Source of the DNA: a virus
Taxonomy: Duplodnaviria; Caudoviricetes
IMG/VR virus record: IMGVR_UViG_3300044477_000015
Location: 1-48,013 of that record
Length of the DNA stretch: 48,013 nucleotides
Direction: 5' to 3' (one strand)
The stretch's first letter is position 1. The number at the start of each line of letters is the position of its first letter. Positions 8,424-47,931 of the stretch are shown here, in pieces. Under the pieces are notes generated by a model. That model was given only the letters and a program-made list of their open reading frames with translations. It ran no database searches and was not told where the DNA came from. A program made the position numbers and the translations under genes.

Positions 8424-10955
8424 TTATTTTTTAGTTAATAAGTTTGCAAATTCATTCACAAAGTCAATTTTCACCTCGTCTGTATTACCTGTAATTGCAT
8501 CAGCAATATCTCTTTTTGTTTGAATAATGTTGTAAATATGCTGGTCAATGGTATCACGTCCGAGAAAATATATAATAGTTACCGGTTTTGTTTGGCCTAT
8601 TCGGTTAAACCTATCCTCTGCCTGATCACATGCCGAGGCCGTCCATGGCTGCTCAATAAAACAAGCGGTTGAGGCTGCGTGTTGTAATCCATCTACCCCG
8701 GTACCGGCTGCCATAATACTTAAAATAGCGGTCGTACATTTGGGATCTTCTTTGAACTTACGAATCATATTTTGACGTTCTTTCAAATCAATATCCCCGG
8801 TAATAACCGCGCTGTTCTTGTAACGTTTAAGTAGTTCGTAACCAATTTCCTTCAGGTGTACGAATATTCCCAGCTTTTCACCATCTTCAATAACATCATC
8901 AATGTATTCAACTACATCAGCCATTTTACCACGGGCCGAGATGTTTTTAAGAATACCGATTTTTACCATTACCTCACCACGTAGCGCGCTTTGAATTTTT
9001 TCATCCGTGGCATCTTTATACTGCGTTAGGTAATTTATGAGGTCATTTTGAGCGGCTTCATACTCTTTACGGTTAGTAATATCACAAAGTACAACCTGCC
9101 TGCTCTTTGGTGGTAATTCCTTGGCAACTTCCTGTTTACTACGACGGTAAAAGCAGTATTTATTTAGGACGTAGTTGAGTTTCTTGAGATTGGAGGCTTC
9201 GCGTTCGCCACTGCAAAACTCCTGAGTAAACTTTCTATATTCACCAAAATAATTCATTACTCCCATTGTGGTAAGTTGTTGAATTAAATCCTTTGGTTTA
9301 TTAACTACTGGGGTACCTGTTAACAGTAATATCCATTTTTTTGCACGGGCAATACCTTGTGTAAGCTTACTCTGAATAGTACCGCTGTCCTTGATTCTAT
9401 GACTTTCGTCTACTACAATAGAATTAAACAACAGTATTTGTTTTTTAAACTTAATATAATCTAGCCTTAAAGGCAATTTTTTACCAGTTACTTTATCGTA
9501 ATGTACTTCGATTTCTTCTACAAAATACTTTTTCAGGCTTTCGTAATTAACGATAAACACCTTACACATATTAGCCTCATAGTATAACCACCAATTACGC
9601 TTAACTGAATCGTTCAATATCATAGTTATATTTCTACCTGTCCACTTTTGCCACTGGTCCTGCCAGTTATATTTTACTGATGATGGGCAAATAACAAGAC
9701 ATGGATAAACAGGATTTTCGCCGGTACGTTGGTAAAGAATGTCACCACCGACAATAGAGGCTATGGCTTGTAATGTTTTACCACAATTATGAACCACAAT
9801 GCCATTGGCAACAAAGTTTCTATACGGATCATCCATGACAATATCATAAACCTTTTTAAGTCCACAGTAAACAATTTCAGTTATTTCATCCTCCTTTGGA
9901 GTTATGTATAATCCAAAATTTCTATGTCTTTTATGTTCTATGTTATGTTCGCTTACGGTAATCAGTTCCAGATTTTCAATTCTGTTATCCGATTTATTTC
10001 TATTTTTATGATGAACATCCATATTTTTAGGAACAACATAACCCAAATGTTTTTCCATCACGATCAAATGTTCGTATACAAGCCCACCAGACCATGATCT
10101 TGGATGATTTTGATAACCTGATAACCTTACATATCCATCTTTATCTATAAAGCTACCGGTTTTATATCTTCCATTGACACGTTTAGACGAATACATACAC
10201 TTTTTGCAAATACCTAAAAACTTTGAGTACTTATAAGTAATTACACCCTCTGATGAGCCACATTCTTTGCATTTTAAAACACCATTAATTATGATATAAT
10301 CCCCGATCTTTAGTTTATCTGCTCGGATATATCCATTATGAGGTGTTAGTACTTCATGATCAAACGTAAGAGTTAGGCTTTTACCTGATTTTGTAGTTAT
10401 TGTGAGACAACTATGATAACCTTTATCAATAATATTATTCATTTTGTGTAAGCCAAATTCGCCATCTTTTAGGCACCTTACTTTAAATGATTCCTTTATT
10501 GATGATTTTGTATACTTTTCATATAACTTTTCGAGAGTTAATTTCTTAGATGCCCCTTTGATATTAAAGTTTATAATTGCATCGCCTGAAATGCAGCCCA
10601 TGTCGTCGCCTATAATTACCCGCTTATGCAATAAATTATAAGCAACTCCCTCTTTTTGATACTCCCTCATGGTTCCATTTAAAGGAATATCAAAATCTAG
10701 TTTTGGCATTGGAGGTATTGTATAGTCCTCATTAACCACCTTATTTGTAACCGATGAAAACGTGAACCCATAACGATGTGCGAATACTTCCATTTTGCGG
10801 CGTTCGCTTATAAGTACTCTCCAGGTTTTACTATCAGGATTAAAACGATAATGCTTTTCTTGACCTTCTACAAATGTTTTTTTAATAGCCTCAACAATAG
10901 AAGGCCTGTAAGGAAAAATGAGTTCAAAATAATGAGGCGTAGTACGAATTTCCAT
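8424..10955 (-). CDS. SNF2/HARP-like DEAD-box helicase interrupted by an intein
   Basis: DDMG|CGKT Walker A split by intein; VDESH, LTGTP, QAEDRFNRIGQ. Confidence 0.9.
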   Translation of the reverse strand: MEIRTTPHYFELIFPYRPSIVEAIKKTFVEGQEKHYRFNPDSKTWRVLISERRKMEVFAHRYGFTFSSVTNKVVNEDYTIPPMPKLDFDIPLNGTMREYQKEGVAYNLLHKRVIIGDDMGCISGDAIINFNIKGASKKLTLEKLYEKYTKSSIKESFKVRCLKDGEFGLHKMNNIIDKGYHSCLTITTKSGKSLTLTFDHEVLTPHNGYIRADKLKIGDYIIINGVLKCKECGSSEGVITYKYSKFLGICKKCMYSSKRVNGRYKTGSFIDKDGYVRLSGYQNHPRSWSGGLVYEHLIVMEKHLGYVVPKNMDVHHKNRNKSDNRIENLELITVSEHNIEHKRHRNFGLYITPKEDEITEIVYCGLKKVYDIVMDDPYRNFVANGIVVHNCGKTLQAIASIVGGDILYQRTGENPVYPCLVICPSSVKYNWQDQWQKWTGRNITMILNDSVKRNWWLYYEANMCKVFIVNYESLKKYFVEEIEVHYDKVTGKKLPLRLDYIKFKKQILLFNSIVVDESHRIKDSGTIQSKLTQGIARAKKWILLLTGTPVVNKPKDLIQQLTTMGVMNYFGEYRKFTQEFCSGEREASNLKKLNYVLNKYCFYRRSKQEVAKELPPKSRQVVLCDITNRKEYEAAQNDLINYLTQYKDATDEKIQSALRGEVMVKIGILKNISARGKMADVVEYIDDVIEDGEKLGIFVHLKEIGYELLKRYKNSAVITGDIDLKERQNMIRKFKEDPKCTTAILSIMAAGTGVDGLQHAASTACFIEQPWTASACDQAEDRFNRIGQTKPVTIIYFLGRDTIDQHIYNIIQTKRDIADAITGNTDEVKIDFVNEFANLLTKK
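9786..10595 (-). mobile_element. Intein (270 aa) with HNH homing endonuclease
   Basis: Starts CISGD, block B LTFDHEV, ends FVANGIVVHN followed by Cys+1; HNH motif VHHKNRNKSDNRIENL. Confidence 0.9.
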
Positions 10956-37065: not shown

Positions 37066-37497
37066 TTAAACATTATCATCGCCGGTTAATTCTGCGGTTT
37101 CAGCAAAATAGATACCTAAAGTATCGGAGGCGAAACGATCGCGAATAGTCTTGTAAGCCACAACCGTTGCCAGCGTGTCAGTACCATCAAGTGTAAGCTT
37201 ATTTTCAGCTACTTTACCACCGATGGCGATATTTACAGTAGCGCTATTACCATTTGTAATGGTTAAGCTTTCAGCGCATACACCAATAAGTTGAATATTG
37301 GCAGTACCGGACTTGTATACTTGGTATGTAGTGCCTACGGCACCAATGGCCATACCAGCAGTTAGAACTAAATCTGAGCCGCTTGCGTTAGCAATGGTAA
37401 CAGCCCTGAAAATCGTATTAGCAAGAAATATCTTGCTTACATCGTACGCGGAAAACAACTGGTTCCGGGTAGATGTTTGTTGAGTAATTTCGCTCAT
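37066..37497 (-). CDS. Head decoration protein (gpD-like)
   Basis: Between protease and capsid; L.AG..IG, IGV.AE, G.V.ENKL. Confidence 0.7.
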   Translation of the reverse strand: MSEITQQTSTRNQLFSAYDVSKIFLANTIFRAVTIANASGSDLVLTAGMAIGAVGTTYQVYKSGTANIQLIGVCAESLTITNGNSATVNIAIGGKVAENKLTLDGTDTLATVVAYKTIRDRFASDTLGIYFAETAELTGDDNV

Positions 37498-41417: not shown

Positions 41418-41472
41418 TTGTTGGAAATTTTATGTAAATATATAGCAGATGCACACGTATTTACTTAAACAT

Positions 41473-41503
41473 TTTGTAGAATTAAAGGGATTTTATACAT
41501 TTG
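41473..41503 (+). promoter_or_regulatory. Bacteroidota consensus promoter for the XRE gene
   Basis: TTTG-N19-TACATTTG. Confidence 0.75.
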
Positions 41504-41532
41504 TACATCAATATCGGAATAAATTTAACCGC

Positions 41533-41724
41533 ATGGATATTTTCGACAAACTGATTAAAATCAGAAAAGAGCAAGGCAAGTGCCAAAAGGAATTGGCTTA
41601 TCATTGCAAGGTTTCTTTAACTACCATGAGCCGCTACGAAGGTAAGAAGCGTAAAATACCGTACGACATGCTGGTTGAATACGCGGAGTTTTTGAAATTG
41701 GATATACGAATACTGGTAAAATGA
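41533..41724 (+). CDS. XRE-family HTH regulator
   Basis: LIKIRKEQGKCQKELA....VS.TTMSRYE.KKR. Confidence 0.85.
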   Translation: MDIFDKLIKIRKEQGKCQKELAYHCKVSLTTMSRYEGKKRKIPYDMLVEYAEFLKLDIRILVK

Positions 41725-41969
41725 TGAAACCTAAACACGTTGCAATAATTGGAAACAATAAGGCAGAAACGGCTATTTTGGCAGCTATTGAATCTATGCA
41801 TCAATTTGAAAAAATTAACATAATATGTATTGATAGTGATGGAGGTAGCATTCATCCGCGCATAGATGAAATGAATACAACATTTGCAAATCCTGTACGT
41901 TTATTACCTTATTATCCTCCGTTAAGTAGACGCGAAAGAAGAAAATTAGCCCGTAAAAAGAAAAAATAA
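41721..41969 (+). CDS. Hypothetical protein
   Basis: Coupled to the XRE gene; basic tail SRRERRK. Confidence 0.5.
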   Translation: MMKPKHVAIIGNNKAETAILAAIESMHQFEKINIICIDSDGGSIHPRIDEMNTTFANPVRLLPYYPPLSRRERRKLARKKKK

Positions 41970-42017
41970 TACACACTTTAACCCCTTTATTTTCCTACAA
42001 AAGTTAAGTTAATTAAA

Positions 42018-42105
42018 TTTAGTGCAATTAAATTGCACCGTATTTCGAAACTTTTTTTACCTTTGATGCGTAAACGTAACCAAACAGTAAAAATTTAGCG
42101 ATATG
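42018..42105 (+). promoter_or_regulatory. Early promoter/leader copy 2 with palindromic operator
   Basis: GTGCAAT-TAA-ATTGCAC (42022-42038), TACCTTTG (42058-42065). Confidence 0.75.
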
Positions 42106-42438
42106 TCAACAGTTAAACAAATAAAAAAAGCAATCGAAAACGTGATAAACGGTTTTAGTTCGCAATATATCAGTGCTGAAGCTGAAAATGGTGAATCAAT
42201 TAAAATTCGCGTATCTAATCACAAATCGAATCCTTCAAGAATGGGTGACAAAGACATTTCGTTAGTAGTTTTTGTTCCTGAAAAAGAAGTTGAATCTGAT
42301 GAATATAACAATTGGGGTAAGAATAAGAAGAACTTTTACGATATTCCAAATCAATATTTTCTTGACGAAAACGGTTCTTTTGAAGAACAATTTCAAGAAA
42401 TTGAAGATTTACTTAACTGGCACGAAATAGTATTTTAA
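42103..42438 (+). CDS. Hypothetical protein under the early promoter
   Basis: 111-aa acidic ORF, IRVSNH motif. Confidence 0.6.
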   Translation: MSTVKQIKKAIENVINGFSSQYISAEAENGESIKIRVSNHKSNPSRMGDKDISLVVFVPEKEVESDEYNNWGKNKKNFYDIPNQYFLDENGSFEEQFQEIEDLLNWHEIVF

Positions 42439-44477
42439 ACCCCATACATCTGCTTTTTAACGATCTTACAGAAATAAGGCCAGCTAATTTCCTTTACCTT
42501 TAACGACTTGAAAAAGTGTTCGACAAATATATCTCGAACCGCAGGGGTATAAACTGCGCAATCAAAGAAATGGTTTGCAACCGAGCTATTTCGCTTCTTC
42601 CATACATATCCAATTTCGGTACCATCTGCGTTTAATTTCGGCGTTTTTTCCTCACTTTCGAATTGCTTAAAATATCCTTTGTAAGAGTATTTGCCATTGT
42701 CCGGTTGTGGGAAATTCATAAATCCATGAGGCTGCGTAAGATTTCCACCCTCGTTCCATACCAGTTCAACCCTATCAGCTATTATATCTTTGAGCTGGTT
42801 TACCTCCAATAAATACAGATTATCGCGTTCTTGTGATTTCTTATGTGTATCGGTATCAACTCCGTGTTTACGGACTTTCTCGGTATCCCCTTTAACGCCA
42901 ATGGTTACAAGTGGCCTGTTCTGCACGCTCATGTGATCAATAAAAGGATAAACGTATTTTGTGAATGCCCCGGTGTCAATACCAGCTATAAGTATTTCAT
43001 AATTGCGCCCGTTGTCTCCGGTGTAAAGCCTTTGTAATACATCCCTTTGAAACACGTCCCAAATGTTATTAATAGGTTCGTTGTTCCTGCACGTCCAGCG
43101 TTCGCGGTGTGAATTCTTATCGCCACGTTGGAATGTACCGATTGAACCAGCATCAATCGAATAAGTATTACCCGTTTCAGCATGAGCAACCACCTCATAA
43201 TCTAATCGCACGTCGTCATCGGTAAACCCGTTTAAGTCACAGGTACATGTAAGCATTATAATTTTACCATTACCATCAGCCTCGGATAAATTACAAGGAA
43301 CCTCAAATATTTTATAGGGCCGTGTATTAAGAGCAAGCTGGTTAATCTGTGGGGTTTTACCTTTTTCCTCATAGGTTTGGCCAAGGACCAAGTTTAAGAA
43401 TACCTGCAGCTTTTTCTTTAGTACGATATTATCACCCGGAAAAATCTTTAACCATTGGCCCGCGTAATGGGTCCAGTCAAAGAAACCTGGAGGTGCGTAA
43501 ATTCCGCTTATGTGGTAGCTTAACCAGTCAGGCCGCGAAGGCTTGGCGGTTGGCCTCCATGTTCCATTTGCCAGCATTTCCCGTTTATGAGATTCTTTGA
43601 AATAGCCTTTGCATTCCTGACATATATACCCTACTGATTTCTCAATTAAATTACCGTGTTCGTCTTTTTCAAAATGTACCCCTACATGCTCGTTACTGCT
43701 TTCTATCTTTTCGTACCAAATGAATTTTATATACGTACCACACAGCGGACAGGGCATCATATAATAACGCTGGTCACCCTGGTTAAACGCATATTTAATT
43801 ACTGAATTGTGTTCAAGTTCCGGCGTACTGATGAGGTTTATCTTCATCGTATCTTTGTACGAATTGAAACGCATGAATATAAGTTCTAGAATATCACCGG
43901 CGAACTTTTGCGCACGTGCAGCCGCTTCGAGATCATCAAAGAAACCGTATTTATAAGAGTTTTGACGACCTATCTTATCAACTGTTTTGATGGAAAAGAA
44001 TTGAAGCGAACCGCCTGGAAACTCTTTCGCGTCTTTTGTATCTCCACTTCGTTTATTGTTTTTCTTTAACGTGTTTGGGCGTATCAAATGTGCTATACCG
44101 CTGTTCTGTAACATCTGATCGATCTTCTTTGTAACTGCAATGTCTGCCATTTCCTTATCAGCTAATGTCATTACCATAGGGCCGGGATGATTCTTTATCA
44201 GGTATCCAATTCCTGTTTCAACAAAGTTTGTACTTTTCCCTATTTGAGCGCCTCCCATAATTGTTTGTATTCGCATCGGGTGGTAAGGGCTTAAGTTGTT
44301 TACTGGTTCACGCCAAAAAGGGAAACGCTCATACGATTGTTTACCCGGAAACGCCGTTACATCGCTGGTAAGTACACGGTATTTTTCAGCCCACTCGGTA
44401 GGTAGTTCTTTTGATATTTGCGTATCAAAATAGTCTAGGATTTCGTTGATCTGGGATTCCTGGTTAGTCATTATCAA
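42435..44477 (-). CDS. Terminase large subunit (lambda GpA family)
   Basis: GAQIGKS, FDDLE, ISTP, GDQRYY..CP.CG, IDTG, NHFFDC.VY. Confidence 0.95.
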   Translation of the reverse strand: MIMTNQESQINEILDYFDTQISKELPTEWAEKYRVLTSDVTAFPGKQSYERFPFWREPVNNLSPYHPMRIQTIMGGAQIGKSTNFVETGIGYLIKNHPGPMVMTLADKEMADIAVTKKIDQMLQNSGIAHLIRPNTLKKNNKRSGDTKDAKEFPGGSLQFFSIKTVDKIGRQNSYKYGFFDDLEAAARAQKFAGDILELIFMRFNSYKDTMKINLISTPELEHNSVIKYAFNQGDQRYYMMPCPLCGTYIKFIWYEKIESSNEHVGVHFEKDEHGNLIEKSVGYICQECKGYFKESHKREMLANGTWRPTAKPSRPDWLSYHISGIYAPPGFFDWTHYAGQWLKIFPGDNIVLKKKLQVFLNLVLGQTYEEKGKTPQINQLALNTRPYKIFEVPCNLSEADGNGKIIMLTCTCDLNGFTDDDVRLDYEVVAHAETGNTYSIDAGSIGTFQRGDKNSHRERWTCRNNEPINNIWDVFQRDVLQRLYTGDNGRNYEILIAGIDTGAFTKYVYPFIDHMSVQNRPLVTIGVKGDTEKVRKHGVDTDTHKKSQERDNLYLLEVNQLKDIIADRVELVWNEGGNLTQPHGFMNFPQPDNGKYSYKGYFKQFESEEKTPKLNADGTEIGYVWKKRNSSVANHFFDCAVYTPAVRDIFVEHFFKSLKVKEISWPYFCKIVKKQMYGV

Positions 44478-44700
44478 TTATATATTTATGTCCAAGTATT
44501 ACCGTTGCTTTCTTTGTTTTCTTAATGCCATTGTATGACTTTCCTGTATTATCGGCATATTCCTGAATACTTACAGGGCAAAGAAATAAACCAGCGAGTT
44601 CAATTAATTGAACCAAACCTTCATTGCTCCATTTGCCTTTAGAAATTGTTTCACCAAGTTTTTGAAGTGATTTCTGTTCATATTCTGATAGTTGTGACAT
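44464..44700 (-). CDS. Small HTH-like protein at the cassette array boundary
   Basis: SIQEYADNTGKSYNGIKK helix-turn-helix-like segment. Confidence 0.55.
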   Translation of the reverse strand: MSQLSEYEQKSLQKLGETISKGKWSNEGLVQLIELAGLFLCPVSIQEYADNTGKSYNGIKKTKKATVILGHKYIIDND

Positions 44701-44746
44701 AGGTGCAATTTATTGAACTGATTTTATACATATGTTGTGCGTAATG

Positions 44747-45001
44747 CTACTCGTCGCAATCTGACAAGTCTAATTTTTCACCCCATTCCGTGCCAAAGTC
44801 AACCCCGATAGATTTACAAGCTGATAATATACCGTGTTCAATATGGTCGATAGGTTCTAATCCTACTACCTTTTTTCGTTTCCCAATTGGGTATTTTAAT
44901 TCTTTTCTAATACTTTTCATTACATACTTTATGTGCAATGAAAACGATTCCAATTCTTTTGGACTGATAATAAATTGATTGTGTAACGCTGAATAATTCA
45001 T
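44747..45001 (-). CDS. Hypothetical protein (cassette 1)
   Basis: ORF bounded by GTTGTGCGTA/TACGCACAAC. Confidence 0.6.
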   Translation of the reverse strand: MNYSALHNQFIISPKELESFSLHIKYVMKSIRKELKYPIGKRKKVVGLEPIDHIEHGILSACKSIGVDFGTEWGEKLDLSDCDE

Positions 45002-45038
45002 AATATTTAATTTATATTGTTAATAATAAAGCACATAC

Positions 45039-45167
45039 GCACAACACGTGGTATAAAACAAAGCGGCTTTAGTGGTTATCGAAGCTTTGTATCCCGTAGC
45101 AAGTGCTCAATAATTTGATAGTTCATTACTCGCACTCCGCTTCGATTTCATACCACCAACGTTACCA
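45039..45167 (+). repeat. attC-like site 1 (129 bp)
   Basis: GCACAAC-ac-GTGGTATAAAACAAAGCGG...CCGCTTCGATTTCATACCAC-caac-GTTACCA. Confidence 0.8.
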
Positions 45168-45173
45168 GCAATG

Positions 45174-45449
45174 TTAAAAACCGCAATTTGCAGCGAAGTA
45201 CAAATAATAATCTTCATTGCAACTTGACAATTCTATATAGCTTTTTTGCTCCTCTGGAAAAGTATGTATTGCCAAATGACTTTCACCGAGTAACCACAAT
45301 GCTGTATATCCTTGCGGTTCAAAAAAATGTTCAATAAAATTAAGTATTTCAAACCCACTTAATTCAAGTAAATCACTAAAGTTATTTTTTAACTTTGTTG
45401 GGTCAGTTTCTTTTAACCAACCGTTTTTATTCCAAATTTTTGCTTCCAT
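45174..45449 (-). CDS. speD: S-adenosylmethionine decarboxylase-like pyruvoyl enzyme (cassette 2)
   Basis: HFFEPQGYT..WLLGE/SHLAIHTFPE...IELSSC with ESH autocleavage site. Confidence 0.85.
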   Translation of the reverse strand: MEAKIWNKNGWLKETDPTKLKNNFSDLLELSGFEILNFIEHFFEPQGYTALWLLGESHLAIHTFPEEQKSYIELSSCNEDYYLYFAANCGF

Positions 45450-46411
45450 TATTTCAATTTTTCAAAGTGTTTATTTATATTTTTTGGGTTACCTTTATAA
45501 AATACAAGTATATTTTGGTGTTGTTTCCCTATTTTTCTTGCGTTACTCATATACGCGCCTGCTCTCATATGTAAATTACCAATCGGGTTTTGTAATATAA
45601 TTTCGTTATAATAATGCAATCCAGCATCGCACATTATTTGTATTATTTTAGGTACAATCCCTAAATATACACCAGTGTTTTTGTGCCTTACCTCTCCAAT
45701 AACTATACACGCAAATCTATTTTCTTTTAGTTTGTTTACTGTCTTTTTTAATATGCTTTCAATAGTCTTAAAAAAATCTTCATAACTCATATTTGATAAA
45801 TCATTTTCTAAATCAGAGTATATTTCCAAATCAGCATATGGTGGGCAACTGAAAATAAAATCTTTGCTATCATTTTCAATGTGTAAATCAATATTTTCAG
45901 AAGTATCACAAATATAATTGCCTTTTAGTCCGTGCAAATCAATTAAATCCTGATTAAAATCTACCTGTTCTTTTCTTAATTCAATTCCTGTAAATGGTCT
46001 GTTTTTATATGCACTACAAAATCCAAATACAGCATCGCCAGCAAATGGGTCTAATGTTTCAAATCCATCATTTGTGAACCAACTCAATATTATTTCACAC
46101 ATTACTGGGTCTAAAATACTTGTAGTATCTCCTTTTATTGCCATAAATTGCCAATTTTTTGAACCTTCTTCATGCCCACATCTACTCAATGTGTTTTTTC
46201 TTACTTGTGCCTTATCGTTAATTTTAATCATCCACTTTTTTTTCTTTTGTTGCCATTCTTTTGAGGCACTATTTAAAATTGAAAAGGGTGGCACAATAAA
46301 CCAATCTTCTAACTTCATTTTATCAACAATTGGTTCTCCGAAAAGATTTAAAGAAACACTGCTGGTAACACGTGGTATAGTTAATTGGGGGCTTTGTTCG
46401 TTATTCATCAT
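45449..46411 (-). CDS. Amino (N4/N6)-type DNA methyltransferase-like protein (cassette 2)
   Basis: LDPFAG (motif I), GIELR, FSCPPY (motif IV variant), HQNILVFYKG. Confidence 0.8.
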   Translation of the reverse strand: MMNNEQSPQLTIPRVTSSVSLNLFGEPIVDKMKLEDWFIVPPFSILNSASKEWQQKKKKWMIKINDKAQVRKNTLSRCGHEEGSKNWQFMAIKGDTTSILDPVMCEIILSWFTNDGFETLDPFAGDAVFGFCSAYKNRPFTGIELRKEQVDFNQDLIDLHGLKGNYICDTSENIDLHIENDSKDFIFSCPPYADLEIYSDLENDLSNMSYEDFFKTIESILKKTVNKLKENRFACIVIGEVRHKNTGVYLGIVPKIIQIMCDAGLHYYNEIILQNPIGNLHMRAGAYMSNARKIGKQHQNILVFYKGNPKNINKHFEKLK

Positions 46412-46491
46412 TCGTTATATTTATTAAGTTTTTACAAGCGGATAGGTTGCCGGTATCTAATCCCCAATTAACCATACCACCACCGTTATAC
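46363..46491 (+). repeat. attC-like site 2 (129 bp)
   Basis: TGGTAAC-ac-GTGGTATAGTTAATTGGGG...CCCCAATTAACCATACCAC-cacc-GTTATAC. Confidence 0.8.
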
Positions 46492-46497
46492 ACAACC

Positions 46498-47232
46498 CTA
46501 AAGAACGTCTGCGAACAGTCCAGTTTGGATTGTGTTGTTTTGTTTATATATACCTAAAGCACTTTCAAATATTGCCAATCCGATTTCGGGAACTACACAA
46601 TTGTTTAAAAGTTTCTTTTTATTTGGGTGGCTTTTATCGGTTAAGTCAAAGCCTAATTTATGGTGGTTTTGTCCTTCACTTCTTTTGCCTCCTAATCGCT
46701 TAACTGGTCCCATTCTTCCAATCGAACCTTCACTTTTTAATTTTGGTATTGTAAAGTTCGCCCAAAAACAATGCCTTCCTGAGCGTTGCGGTTTAATCAA
46801 AGGTTCGTAATATGGTTCAACATTTTCAACACAATACTTGCCTTTAAAAAAGTGTTGTAAGAATATTATTTCTTGGTACAAACTCATATCAGGGTATCTA
46901 ATCGTACCAGCTCCAACTAAAAAGTAATTACAACCTGAATGAGTTGGGCAAGGAGGTGAAGCCCAAATAAAGTCAAATTCGCTGTAATGGTCAATTAAAT
47001 ACTGGTGTGCATCCCCTACAATTACTTTATCATTCGGAAAAAAATCCTGATATATTTTAGCAATTTTAGGGTCATATTCAACCGCTGTTACTTCAATATT
47101 TCCGCTCCATAATTTTCTATTACCGCCAATACCAGCATATAAGTTAAGAATACGAAAGGGCTGTGTATAACATCGGCTCATACCCAATTGGGGTTTAAGT
47201 GGTTCTGTAAGGTTTGTATCTTCGTTTTTCAT
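46498..47232 (-). CDS. C5 cytosine DNA methyltransferase (cassette 3)
   Basis: NLYAGIGG, ASPPC, VENV, C-terminal NCVVP. Confidence 0.85.
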   Translation of the reverse strand: MKNEDTNLTEPLKPQLGMSRCYTQPFRILNLYAGIGGNRKLWSGNIEVTAVEYDPKIAKIYQDFFPNDKVIVGDAHQYLIDHYSEFDFIWASPPCPTHSGCNYFLVGAGTIRYPDMSLYQEIIFLQHFFKGKYCVENVEPYYEPLIKPQRSGRHCFWANFTIPKLKSEGSIGRMGPVKRLGGKRSEGQNHHKLGFDLTDKSHPNKKKLLNNCVVPEIGLAIFESALGIYKQNNTIQTGLFADVL

Positions 47233-47296
47233 TTGTTGTAATTTGATAATTTAGTTCTCGTAAATCCCCAACTGGGCATAGCCGTCGGCGTTACTT
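47165..47296 (+). repeat. attC-like site 3 (132 bp)
   Basis: GTATAAC-at-CGGCTCATACCCAATTGGGG...CCCCAACTGGGCATAGCCG-tcggc-GTTACTT. Confidence 0.8.
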
Positions 47297-47905
47297 TAAT
47301 AAACTTTCATTCACAATATTTCCCATGTTTTGTCGTATTTCGAAGATGCTGCGCTTTGTGCTTTCATTGCTAATGTCAGTTAGTTTACTGCACGCGCGCG
47401 TTATTATCTCGTTTCCAGCTTGTAATTCGTTGAGAGTATCTCGTATTAACTGCTCTGTTTGCTGGCTGTACATTGCTTTGTACCGATTTATAACCTCACC
47501 GAGTACTTTTTTTACAGCATCAACAGAAACCAGACGGCCCTCAATACGGTCGTTCCTTAACCGGGACTGTCGTATTTCTTCTTGTAGTTTTTCATTTCGT
47601 AAGTTATTCGTTTGTTGGAATTCTAAGTATAATGGATCGTTTACAGCCCGGCTTATGCGTTTACCTTGTTTAGGTGGTTCTTCTACGGACTTTGGTACCT
47701 TGGTAGGTTGCTCTTTTTCGCTTGGTTTTACTTTTACCTTGGCGCTGGTTTCTCGGGAATCAATAAATATTTTGTTGATCGGATCATCTTCGTCTATGTA
47801 ACCTTCCTCAAGAAAAATAAGCTTACCCCGTTTTTTATAAGTGTATACATTGGTTCTGTTTAACCCGTACTTCTCAGCAAATTCAGGCACTTTAAGTAAT
47901 CCCAT
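47291..47905 (-). CDS. Terminase small subunit (Nu1-like)
   Basis: N-terminal HTH (EFAEKYGLNRTNVY...RGKL), coiled coil followed by GRLVSVDAV. Confidence 0.75.
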   Translation of the reverse strand: MGLLKVPEFAEKYGLNRTNVYTYKKRGKLIFLEEGYIDEDDPINKIFIDSRETSAKVKVKPSEKEQPTKVPKSVEEPPKQGKRISRAVNDPLYLEFQQTNNLRNEKLQEEIRQSRLRNDRIEGRLVSVDAVKKVLGEVINRYKAMYSQQTEQLIRDTLNELQAGNEIITRACSKLTDISNESTKRSIFEIRQNMGNIVNESLLK

Positions 47906-47923: not shown

Positions 47924-47931
47924 CAAATGTA
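47924..47931 (-). promoter_or_regulatory. -7 promoter box upstream of terS
   Basis: TACATTTG 18 nt before the ATG. Confidence 0.5.

Follow-up and report, generated by a model that had tools for sequence, protein, structure and literature searches.

A putative phage form of the integron-like cassette array, with antisense genes and an attI-like dock beside a predicted Xis-like gene

The IMG/VR virus record IMGVR_UViG_3300044477_000015 (Duplodnaviria; Caudoviricetes), a 48-kb linear record (48,013 nucleotides, 92% complete) analysed as a whole and hereafter called the window, carries three gene cassettes between terS (47291-47905) and terL (44471/44477-42435). Judging from its sequence, this array works in the manner of integron cassettes, although it does not qualify as a canonical integron. 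We consider it probable that it is a phage form of the integron-like arrays of Bacteroidota, in which genes would lie antisense to the recombination sites and start in hairpin loops, cassettes would enter at a dock at 44734 attended by a palindrome-binding, Xis-like protein, and an Xer-like recombinase would be supplied in trans. The record carries genes for terminase, portal, capsid and a contractile tail, of which almost all lie on the minus strand. Its host is probably a member of the Bacteroidota, judging from the site family and from bacterial matches that are mostly Bacteroidota by record title. The features of the array are listed below; a slash marks the crossover, and offsets are counted from the G of GTT.

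42435-44477, minus strand: terL, terminase large subunit (Pfam GpA_ATPase and GpA_nuclease), to the left of the module.
44464-44700, minus strand: gene of 78 amino acids (aa), predicted helical hairpin plus Xis/MerR-like winged helix-turn-helix (HTH), from a structure model and the array linkage.
44598-44613: second palindrome copy inside the 78-aa gene, codons V-Q-L-I-E (inverted repeat I13).
44703-44718: palindrome GTTCAA-N4-TTGAAC, directly before the 78-aa ATG (logo of 59 homologous junctions).
44719-44737, plus strand: attI-like dock with TATA-like box, short spacer and G/TT (conserved AAC-N15/16-palindrome spacing).
44735-45161, plus (top) strand: cassette 1, 427 bp, ends complementary over 10 nt and 4 more past a bulge.
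44747-45001, minus strand: cassette 1 open reading frame (ORF), 84 aa, stop at +13, own ATG outside the site.
45031-45163, plus strand: attC-like site 1, outer arm 45031-45045 (AAC 45043-45045), inner part 45046-45160, G/TT at 45161.
45162-46485, plus strand: cassette 2, 1324 bp, two genes, ends complementary at 14/15 positions with the mismatch at +10.
45174-45449, minus strand: S-adenosylmethionine (AdoMet) decarboxylase-like (SpeD-like) gene, 91 aa, stop at +13 (Pfam AdoMet_dc, 1e-14).
45449-46411, minus strand: N6/N4 DNA methyltransferase (Pfam N6_N4_Mtase).
46355-46487, plus strand: attC-like site 2, outer arm 46355-46369, inner part 46370-46484, G/TT at 46485 (inverted repeat I4).
46486-47290, plus strand: cassette 3, 805 bp, ends complementary at 14/15 positions.
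46498-47232, minus strand: C5 DNA methyltransferase, stop at +13 (Pfam DNA_methylase).
47157-47292, plus strand: attC-like site 3, outer arm 47157-47171, inner part 47172-47289, G/TT at 47290, the distal array end.
47291-47905, minus strand: terS-like gene (PHROG 57 at 1e-4; homologues abut terL in relatives).

Sites were located with a detector pattern (YAAC[AC]...stem...CGTT[AG]), which returned exactly three full sites in the window, all TAACA/CAACA...CGTT on the plus strand, and none on its minus strand; 228 kb of shuffled loci yielded no site. Partial pattern scans (17/64 parts for viruses, 4/64 parts for bacteria) gave 150 viral and 130 bacterial loci, and ~460 viral stretches in the partial viral scan matched one narrow site pattern. 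All cassette ORFs of the window lie on the minus strand, opposite to classical cassettes, as the initial annotation of this DNA had stated. The same holds elsewhere: to the right of 295 distinct viral sites we counted 199 antisense and 6 sense genes, with 79 flanks lacking a callable ORF and 11 at a contig edge, and to the left 193 antisense and 10 sense genes (83 without a callable ORF, 9 at an edge). Around 305 bacterial sites the right flanks held 171 sense and 21 antisense genes (92 none, 21 edge) and the left flanks 218 sense and 15 antisense (58 none, 14 edge). Among oriented right flanks, 199/205 are antisense in viruses, while 171/192 are sense in bacterial arrays of the same site family. 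The phage-specific cassette class proposed initially is upheld as a gene orientation, but its sites are not phage-specific, for the same family fills bacterial arrays.

The cassette unit runs from G/TT to G/TT with the site at the start end of the gene. In a comparison of 494 delimited cassettes, viral and bacterial, four viral pairs on different contigs (L006/L021, L058/L075, L051/L062, and L315/L331) can be aligned over the stretch that begins at the left G and ends with the GTT behind the site, their flanks being unrelated. This fixes the unit and shows that cassettes have moved. Cassette 3 also has homologues of 735-814 bp in other arrays, 69-71% identical. Judging from the shared-cassette alignments, which include the site at the start end of the gene, we regard as already refuted, and scarcely conceivable, the notion that the polarity has been misread and the minus strand is really the top strand of ordinary sense cassettes, each followed by its site. 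In favour of this notion, the sites are near-palindromic, terS ends in TAAC on the minus strand, stops at +1 are common, and a family site of Polaribacter phage P12002L is listed in the gene-strand direction (PMC9892861); yet bacterial sites in this orientation are accompanied by sense genes, the skew of G.T pairs described below assigns the gene strand as the folding strand, and no site follows the last gene of the array. In an uncultured Bacteroidaceae (L207/L208), a run of ~308-bp cassettes with 76-93% mutual identity suggests that cassettes were duplicated locally and then diverged.

In viruses and bacteria alike, an inverted repeat of 14-15 bp, specific to each cassette, closes the cassettes of this family. 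In 155 viral neighbour pairs, cognate arms matched at rates of 0.59-0.79 at +4 to +9, versus 0.31-0.43 for non-cognate arms, fell to 0.04 at +10, where a fixed A/G mismatch forms a G.T pair on the bottom strand, and reached background from +15; 176 bacterial neighbour pairs showed the same terminal-repeat pattern. Under unbiased scoring, inner-arm mismatches read on the top strand were A.C rather than G.T (727 vs 55 in 395 viral sites; 747 vs 14 in 339 bacterial sites), and the bottom strand of the predicted circle, which is the coding strand in phages, folded better at 89/90 viral and 89/90 bacterial sites. Inner lengths of sites 1-3 are 115, 115, and 118 nt. With at most one bulge modelled, 275/412 viral sites had no bulge in the first 15 pairs, and a left-arm C bulge was seen in 14/412 viral sites and in 1/3 window sites. 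Neither the window region nor nine source scans matched any relevant Rfam family that would account for the sites. Xer-type recombinases bind arms of about 11 bp, and the terminal repeat would supply such a paired binding arm in the folded strand.

The initial annotation had also proposed that stops lie at a fixed 13-nt offset from the G of GTT. Within the window this is accurate for all three cassettes, with G at 44734, 45161, and 46485 and stops ending at 44747 (TAG), 45174 (TAA), and 46498 (TAG), the one in cassette 2 belonging to the SpeD-like gene and not to the methyltransferase. At the fourth junction (G 47290) the TAA stop of terS itself forms the GTTA, an offset of +1, in a host-type flank without A at +10. 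As a general rule the offset fails: among 293 viral sites with a callable gene (of 401), stops fell at +1 in 77, +13 in 64, +11 in 21, +12 in 16, and +8 in 13, the rest further out, so that the lack of conservation in other arrays that the annotation itself had named as counter-evidence was found in part. Given this distribution, three of three at +13 has a chance of ~0.01 and any three equal offsets ~0.03. Stops in the frame shared by +1 and +13 number 181/293, a stop triplet at +13 is the one used by the gene in 64/79 sites having one, and bacterial sense cassettes mirror the pattern at the other end, with peaks at 1, 11, 14, 15, and 16. We read the stop as abutting the edge of the terminal repeat, with +13 as one mode and not the rule; the fixed offset, though wrong as a rule, reflects a real structural feature. 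A possible reason for the frame bias is that a cassette starts out with a natural TAA-C end and at a later stage acquires a stop immediately beyond the arm.

The methyltransferase ORFs of cassettes 2 and 3 both open inside a site, at ATG 46411 and ATG 47232, as first annotated, and neither has a usable start outside the hairpin. In the C5 enzyme every ATG, GTG, or TTG before motif I lies within the site, and most of 120 homologues begin M-K-[IV]-L-N; in the N6/N4 enzyme the single ATG outside the site comes only after a conserved LFG motif, and of 120 homologues 72 have long leaders, 34 a short N-terminus with their own Met, and 14 could not be scored. The N6/N4 gene therefore likely starts at 46411 or 46408 inside site 2, and the C5 gene likely at 47232 inside site 3. 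Two of the three cassettes start in this way, the cassette 1 gene starting at 45001 in a frame that is closed before the site. The broader proposal that the site doubles as translation start applies to a large minority, not to all genes: the frame is clear for 236 viral cassette genes at the 401 sites, and 89 of these genes have an in-frame ATG in the site. Thirty-five of the 236 lack an ATG within 120 nt of the crossover, and 33/35 of these have an in-frame in-site ATG, versus 56/201 of those with their own (p 4e-14). In 102/236 cases the gene frame stays open back to an in-site ATG; for the other frames the figure is 83/472. The start context is of the Bacteroidota type: A occurs at -13 to -10 with frequencies of 0.65-0.70 before leader ATGs, 0.45-0.71 before ordinary starts, and 0.21-0.45 before control ATGs, and starts in Flavobacterium are marked by adenines at -14 to -11 (PMC6847099). 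The leader would take the place of the native Met roughly where the repeat has its edge. The same methylases exist free, with their own Met, and as cassettes, with the Met replaced by a hairpin leader, which makes the origin of cassettes addressable by phylogeny; annotators should expect spurious shared N-termini on unrelated phage proteins.

The end of the array at 44734 differs from the three sites. The initial annotation gave the coordinate and offset of this junction correctly but overlooked the dock, the 78-aa gene and the terminal inverted repeats. The junction is not an attC: it has no hairpin, and we read it as the docking end, an attI-like dock 16 nt from the palindrome that abuts the 78-aa gene, with the crossover probably after G 44734. 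A fourth attC at 44734, formed through inverted repeat I13, was considered and rejected: no stable hairpin forms (z -0.65/-0.79), and I13 consists of the two palindrome copies. The motif to the left of 44734 recurs at many array ends that are not attC. A search with the 78-aa protein alone fetched 74 viral loci, 65 of them with distinct, readable upstream DNA, and a cassette-type junction precedes the ATG in 59/65. Antisense sites lie upstream in 38/48 loci with at least 1.5 kb of upstream DNA, sense sites in 0, and downstream sites occur in 0/59. The consensus of the dock is AAC, 15-16 nt with a TA box, TTCAA-N4-TTGAAC, and ATG, with a spacing of 15 or 16 in 40/59. Conversely, the DNA motif alone retrieved 31 distinct loci, overlapping the protein-found set, of which 25 continue into a homologue of the small gene (some truncated), and 20/25 of these have upstream sites. 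The first cassette is not the same from locus to locus, and its cognate arms have stayed intact (at least 9/10 matches in 33/65).

The platform occupies differing genome places in different phages. In 10 terL-related loci examined of 24 returned (many duplicates), terS abuts terL in eight, one has a gap without site or gene, and one (L016/L524) carries this platform too, but its cargo differs and its four sites are others. A search of viral contigs with terL as the only query gave no match. These data bear on the possibility that there is no dedicated dock, the cassettes having landed at a secondary, attG-like GTT at the terS stop and the small gene being incidental. The distal junction is indeed a host TAA-C stop in the window, and in L333 an array after terL again ends on the TAA-C of a host gene; 7/21 flanks without a cassette signature have a stop at +1, and many array ends lack the palindrome. 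Yet the junction and the antisense sites upstream of protein-chosen loci, the absence of sites downstream, the retrieval of the gene by the motif in 25/31, and the relatives that lack gene and array together already largely refute this account, which we hold to be most improbable.

The 78-aa protein belongs to a family of 274 clusters at 50% identity and has no Pfam or PHROG match. Its model (pLDDT 90) shows an N-terminal helical hairpin and a winged HTH, with weak fold matches to RdfS, Xis, and BldC (Z 3.0-3.7). The gene was not found in INPHARED phages, where site 2 also had no match by blastn, nor in 401 genomes of the phylum in a search without a positive control. The palindrome at 44703-44718 is likely an operator or accessory site. 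Only two good copies exist in the 48-kb record, 105 bp apart, and over 29 loci, uncorrected for relatedness, spacings cluster at 92-95, 103-105, and 110-113 bp, near whole helical turns. Across 40 distinct homologues the codons of the inner copy are nearly invariant (CAA 34/34, ATT 37/37, GAA 36/37, GTT/GTG 34/35), unlike the same codons elsewhere in the small genes (CAA 75/97, ATT 92/246, GAA 151/188, GTT/GTG 76/155), and judging from this codon usage the inner copy is under DNA-level constraint. Classical integrons are under host SOS control, and palindrome binding by the 78-aa protein is a prediction, so one may ask whether the palindromes instead bind a host regulator (e.g., a stress-response repressor) that times the small gene and the shuffling, while the small protein helps the recombinase without touching DNA or has another role. 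We find this very unlikely, because the palindrome tracks the small gene, including the constrained copy inside it, has only two good copies in the record, and is absent near the bacterial recombinase genes checked.

At its 3' end the 78-aa gene overlaps the terL ATG at 44471, and in 25/59 homologues the stop is likewise overlapped by an ATG, with similarity ending at the stop; to judge from this arrangement, the module can hand translation to whatever gene follows. A second G/TT at the 3' end that would mobilise the whole module was rejected, TAAC being present in only 3/59 homologues.

Neither the window (66 protein queries against Pfam, including PF00589, and PHROG; record 92% complete) nor five further records carrying the small gene, of which two reach a completeness of at least 90%, contained a tyrosine recombinase. 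Bacterial arrays of the family follow a co-oriented Xer-like recombinase, whose stop precedes the start of the array by 28-92 nt in L376-L378, and the orientation is the same in L380 and in an uncultured Bacteroidaceae genome (L500). These linked recombinases score 158-193 bits against TIGR02249 (cut-off 265) and match it in two stretches without profile positions ~182-237, the IntI insertion. In the viral loci L058, L039, and L030/L061 a relative of the recombinase occupies the slot of the small gene (267 and 278 aa in the two complete cases). The enzyme acting on the window is likely an Xer-like recombinase without the IntI insertion, supplied in trans. The annotated integrase of Polaribacter phage Freya_10 (L497:3844-4962) is a relative of the phage cassette recombinase, with a cassette-type junction just upstream and a 9-nt cognate repeat inside the previous gene, and it provides a model of the recombinase-type dock in a cultured phage; a similar enzyme occurs in Cellulophaga phage Ingeline.

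The lack of a recombinase in these six records also fits a dock that is a relic, with the 78-aa protein a mere autorepressor, the recombinase lost, and the array frozen or changed only by homologous recombination between similar hairpins. An operator over its own start with an auxiliary copy in the gene is a usual layout of a repressor, and the two palindromes resemble it; truncated small genes persist beside arrays, and no excised or joined cassette form was seen in the contigs of one DNA sequencing run, possibly the source of the record. We nevertheless think a relic unlikely. The distance from palindrome to crossover is held at 15-16 nt in 40/59 junctions, and the differing first cassettes with intact cognate arms likewise tell against it. 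The palindrome, moreover, was not found at four phage and four bacterial recombinase-type docks checked, which argues that it is not left over from a recombinase platform.

The cassette genes point in the same direction as terS and terL. A TAnnTTTG box, which we take to be the Bacteroidota -7 element, lies at 47924-47931, 19 nt before terS; no terminator-like site was found on the minus strand of the window, and a scan for sigma-70 promoters and terminators stayed at chance level. Read-through from the terS transcript is plausible; arrays of the same platform, however, lie elsewhere in other phages. TAnnTTTG is present on the top strand of 55/401 viral versus 14/347 bacterial sites, and may only mirror the A-rich start region or may mark antisense promoters.

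We propose the following mechanism for the phage array. It is quite likely that the gene (bottom) strand folds and that in the excised circle the hairpin is lengthened by the repeat, which would offer a simple recombinase an unpaired spacer flanked by two paired arms. Genes would likely be trimmed to the edge of the arm, leaving stops at +1 and +11 to +13, with +13 the commonest phage solution. We think it very likely that the A-rich loop would act as a start region without a Shine-Dalgarno sequence, and that translation of the arm would put a leader in place of the gene's own Met. The recombinase would probably come from the rAID-type platform of the host or from a co-infecting phage. Binding of both palindromes by the 78-aa protein is likely as well; that by looping them it gates or directs recombination, and does not only repress itself, is possible, though we lean slightly the other way. 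The cassettes would, somewhat more probably than otherwise, be read by read-through from upstream phage promoters, in which case the newest cassette would be read last, the reverse of integron logic. A bolder version is tentative and, taken whole, doubtful: Bacteroidota phages would run an enzyme-less gene-capture platform, a module of 100-300 bp (dock, two phased palindromes, Xis-like gene) that borrows the host's rAID-type recombinase, the small protein being the first factor for directionality or recruitment in a system of the integron-like kind, and cassettes being made by fixing a 15-bp arm onto the start and stop of a gene, with the hairpin loop replacing the lost start codon. If true, each cassette records how it was made.

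Several results weigh against the proposed phage array or limit its generality. The loci were drawn by patterns and de-duplicated by exact flanks only, so the counts are not of independent events. Ten of the 48 small-gene loci with room had no upstream site by the detector, and 6/31 motif loci had no recognisable homologue of the small gene, several other homologues being truncated, so the 78-aa protein may be dispensable. Its best fold match reached only Z 3.7, and Foldseek gave no match in PDB at E<=0.001. No in-site leader was present in 147/236 viral cassette genes, and in a protein-first survey of the C5 methyltransferase the 68 scored loci comprised 57 with their own Met but no site, 4 with their own Met plus a site, only 2 with a leader and a site (the window and L385, both at +13), and 5 with neither, among them L387 with a long N-terminus and no detected site. 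No cassette shared between viruses and bacteria was found among the 494 compared, so use of a host enzyme rests only on shared site geometry. Finally, the record is linear and 92% complete, and a phage recombinase could lie in the missing part.

As to cargo, no function was suggested for the 84-aa ORF of cassette 1 by Pfam or PHROG searches. In cassette 2 the SpeD-like gene, with an intact-looking ESH motif, is coupled to the stop of the N6/N4 methyltransferase gene (45174-46411 for the pair); with its methyltransferase-fold and AdoMet decarboxylase-like genes, the cassette may add an aminopropyl-type group, and not a methyl group, to DNA. Beyond the array, three plus-strand ORFs at 41449-42438 (HTH_3-like 91 aa, 82 aa, and 111 aa) interrupt the minus-strand head operon after terL; this insert has no cassette sites, relatives hold other inserts at the same place, and in one sequencing run another contig diverges near 42057-42105. 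A helicase-like ORF at 8424-10955 has an internal HNH endonuclease region, possibly an intein or a fused homing nuclease. The terL of L510/L515 is 1022 aa long, which also suggests an insertion.

In Bacteroidota phages the family would amount to a widespread system for swapping genes, with anti-restriction methylases among its cargo. What the window adds is an attI-like dock with an Xis-like gene, and we know of no dedicated accessory protein at an integron docking site. The published systems closest to it are rAID and the cassette clusters of phages. rAID arrays of Bacteroidales (Ross et al., bioRxiv 10.1101/471110; PMC12247911) consist of short, co-oriented genes with a XerD-like recombinase on their 5' side; the motifs repeated between the genes are described as 'reminiscent of integrons'. 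Bacterial arrays of the window's site family, including one in an uncultured Bacteroidaceae genome, share this layout: L376, L377, L378, and L380 are co-oriented with an array GC of 0.30-0.36 (rAID requires at least 2 genes and <=41% GC), and L500 agrees in layout. The likeness is one of layout; rAID is further defined by a recombinase >44% identical to BF9343_RS08045. In the available text rAID is described as arrays of immunity genes, with hairpin, terminal repeat, crossover, and phage undefined, and the words 'phage' and 'cassette' do not occur in that of PMC12247911. The phage array differs in its antisense genes, in-site starts, methyltransferase and SpeD-like cargo, and lack of a cis recombinase.

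Integrase-less attC clusters (CALINs) with DNA methyltransferases were reported in virulent phages, including P12002L (Qi et al., 2023, PMC9892861). By our own detector the window, with three sites, falls under their definition (at least two attC-like sites, no neighbouring integrase). P12002L has five family sites by the detector, with genes mostly antisense; its attC1, which fits the family by eye, was the only one of six sites to lack verified IntI1 recombination (PMC9892861). We read attC1 as a family site taken in the gene-strand direction, with short outer arms, and attC2 as the docking end of an array. The published attC2 stretch occurs twice (L496:29175-29240 and 37201-37266), each at the left end of an antisense array, and on our reading represents a third dock type, gene-less or with a different gene. 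The available text treats these CALINs as ordinary attC sites in 'divergent directions' and describes no antisense class, leaders, terminal repeats, or dock gene. Predictions that take gene direction as site direction can misread family sites, apparently as in P12002L. No reversed cassettes were found in the available text of PMC8876359, and no description of antisense phage cassettes, in-site starts, or a dock accessory gene in the literature searched, from which subscription papers were largely absent.

With the canonical integron the array shares the G/TT crossover, the split-site complementarity, and a hairpin with unpaired spacer and variable loop (PMC5027507, PMC4889954, PMC8138268), a docking site beside a divergent gene, and G.T mispairs and stability on the bottom strand, as known for classical attC (PMC5027507). 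The AAC/GTT triplets and cognate complementarity per cassette are present, the outer complementarity being extended to 14-15 bp versus 7; the spacer is asymmetric (2 vs 4-5 nt), and extrahelical bases, found near L'' in attC, are mostly lacking. IntI has a specific insertion, whereas the window has no integrase and the linked recombinases lack the insertion, which has been held essential for integrons; the longer paired outer arm is a possible reason. Whereas attI lies beside the integrase gene and top-strand genes are read from the Pc promoter at attI, the dock lies beside a non-catalytic 78-aa gene, a small winged-HTH gene in the intI position, and 3/3 cassettes are antisense, with bottom-strand genes.

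Xis-type proteins usually bind direct repeats. The 78-aa protein differs from such excisionases in its palindromic sites, its weak scores, its extra N-terminal helical hairpin, and the lack of a cis integrase; yet its residues 40-78 superpose on the winged HTH domains of excisionases and recombination directionality factors (RdfS 8dgl, Pukovnik Xis 4j2n, P2 Cox-type 4lhf, and BldC 6amk; for Xis, Z 3.4, rmsd 1.9, 39 aligned residues), and its gene, like those of directionality factors, adjoins a recombination site.

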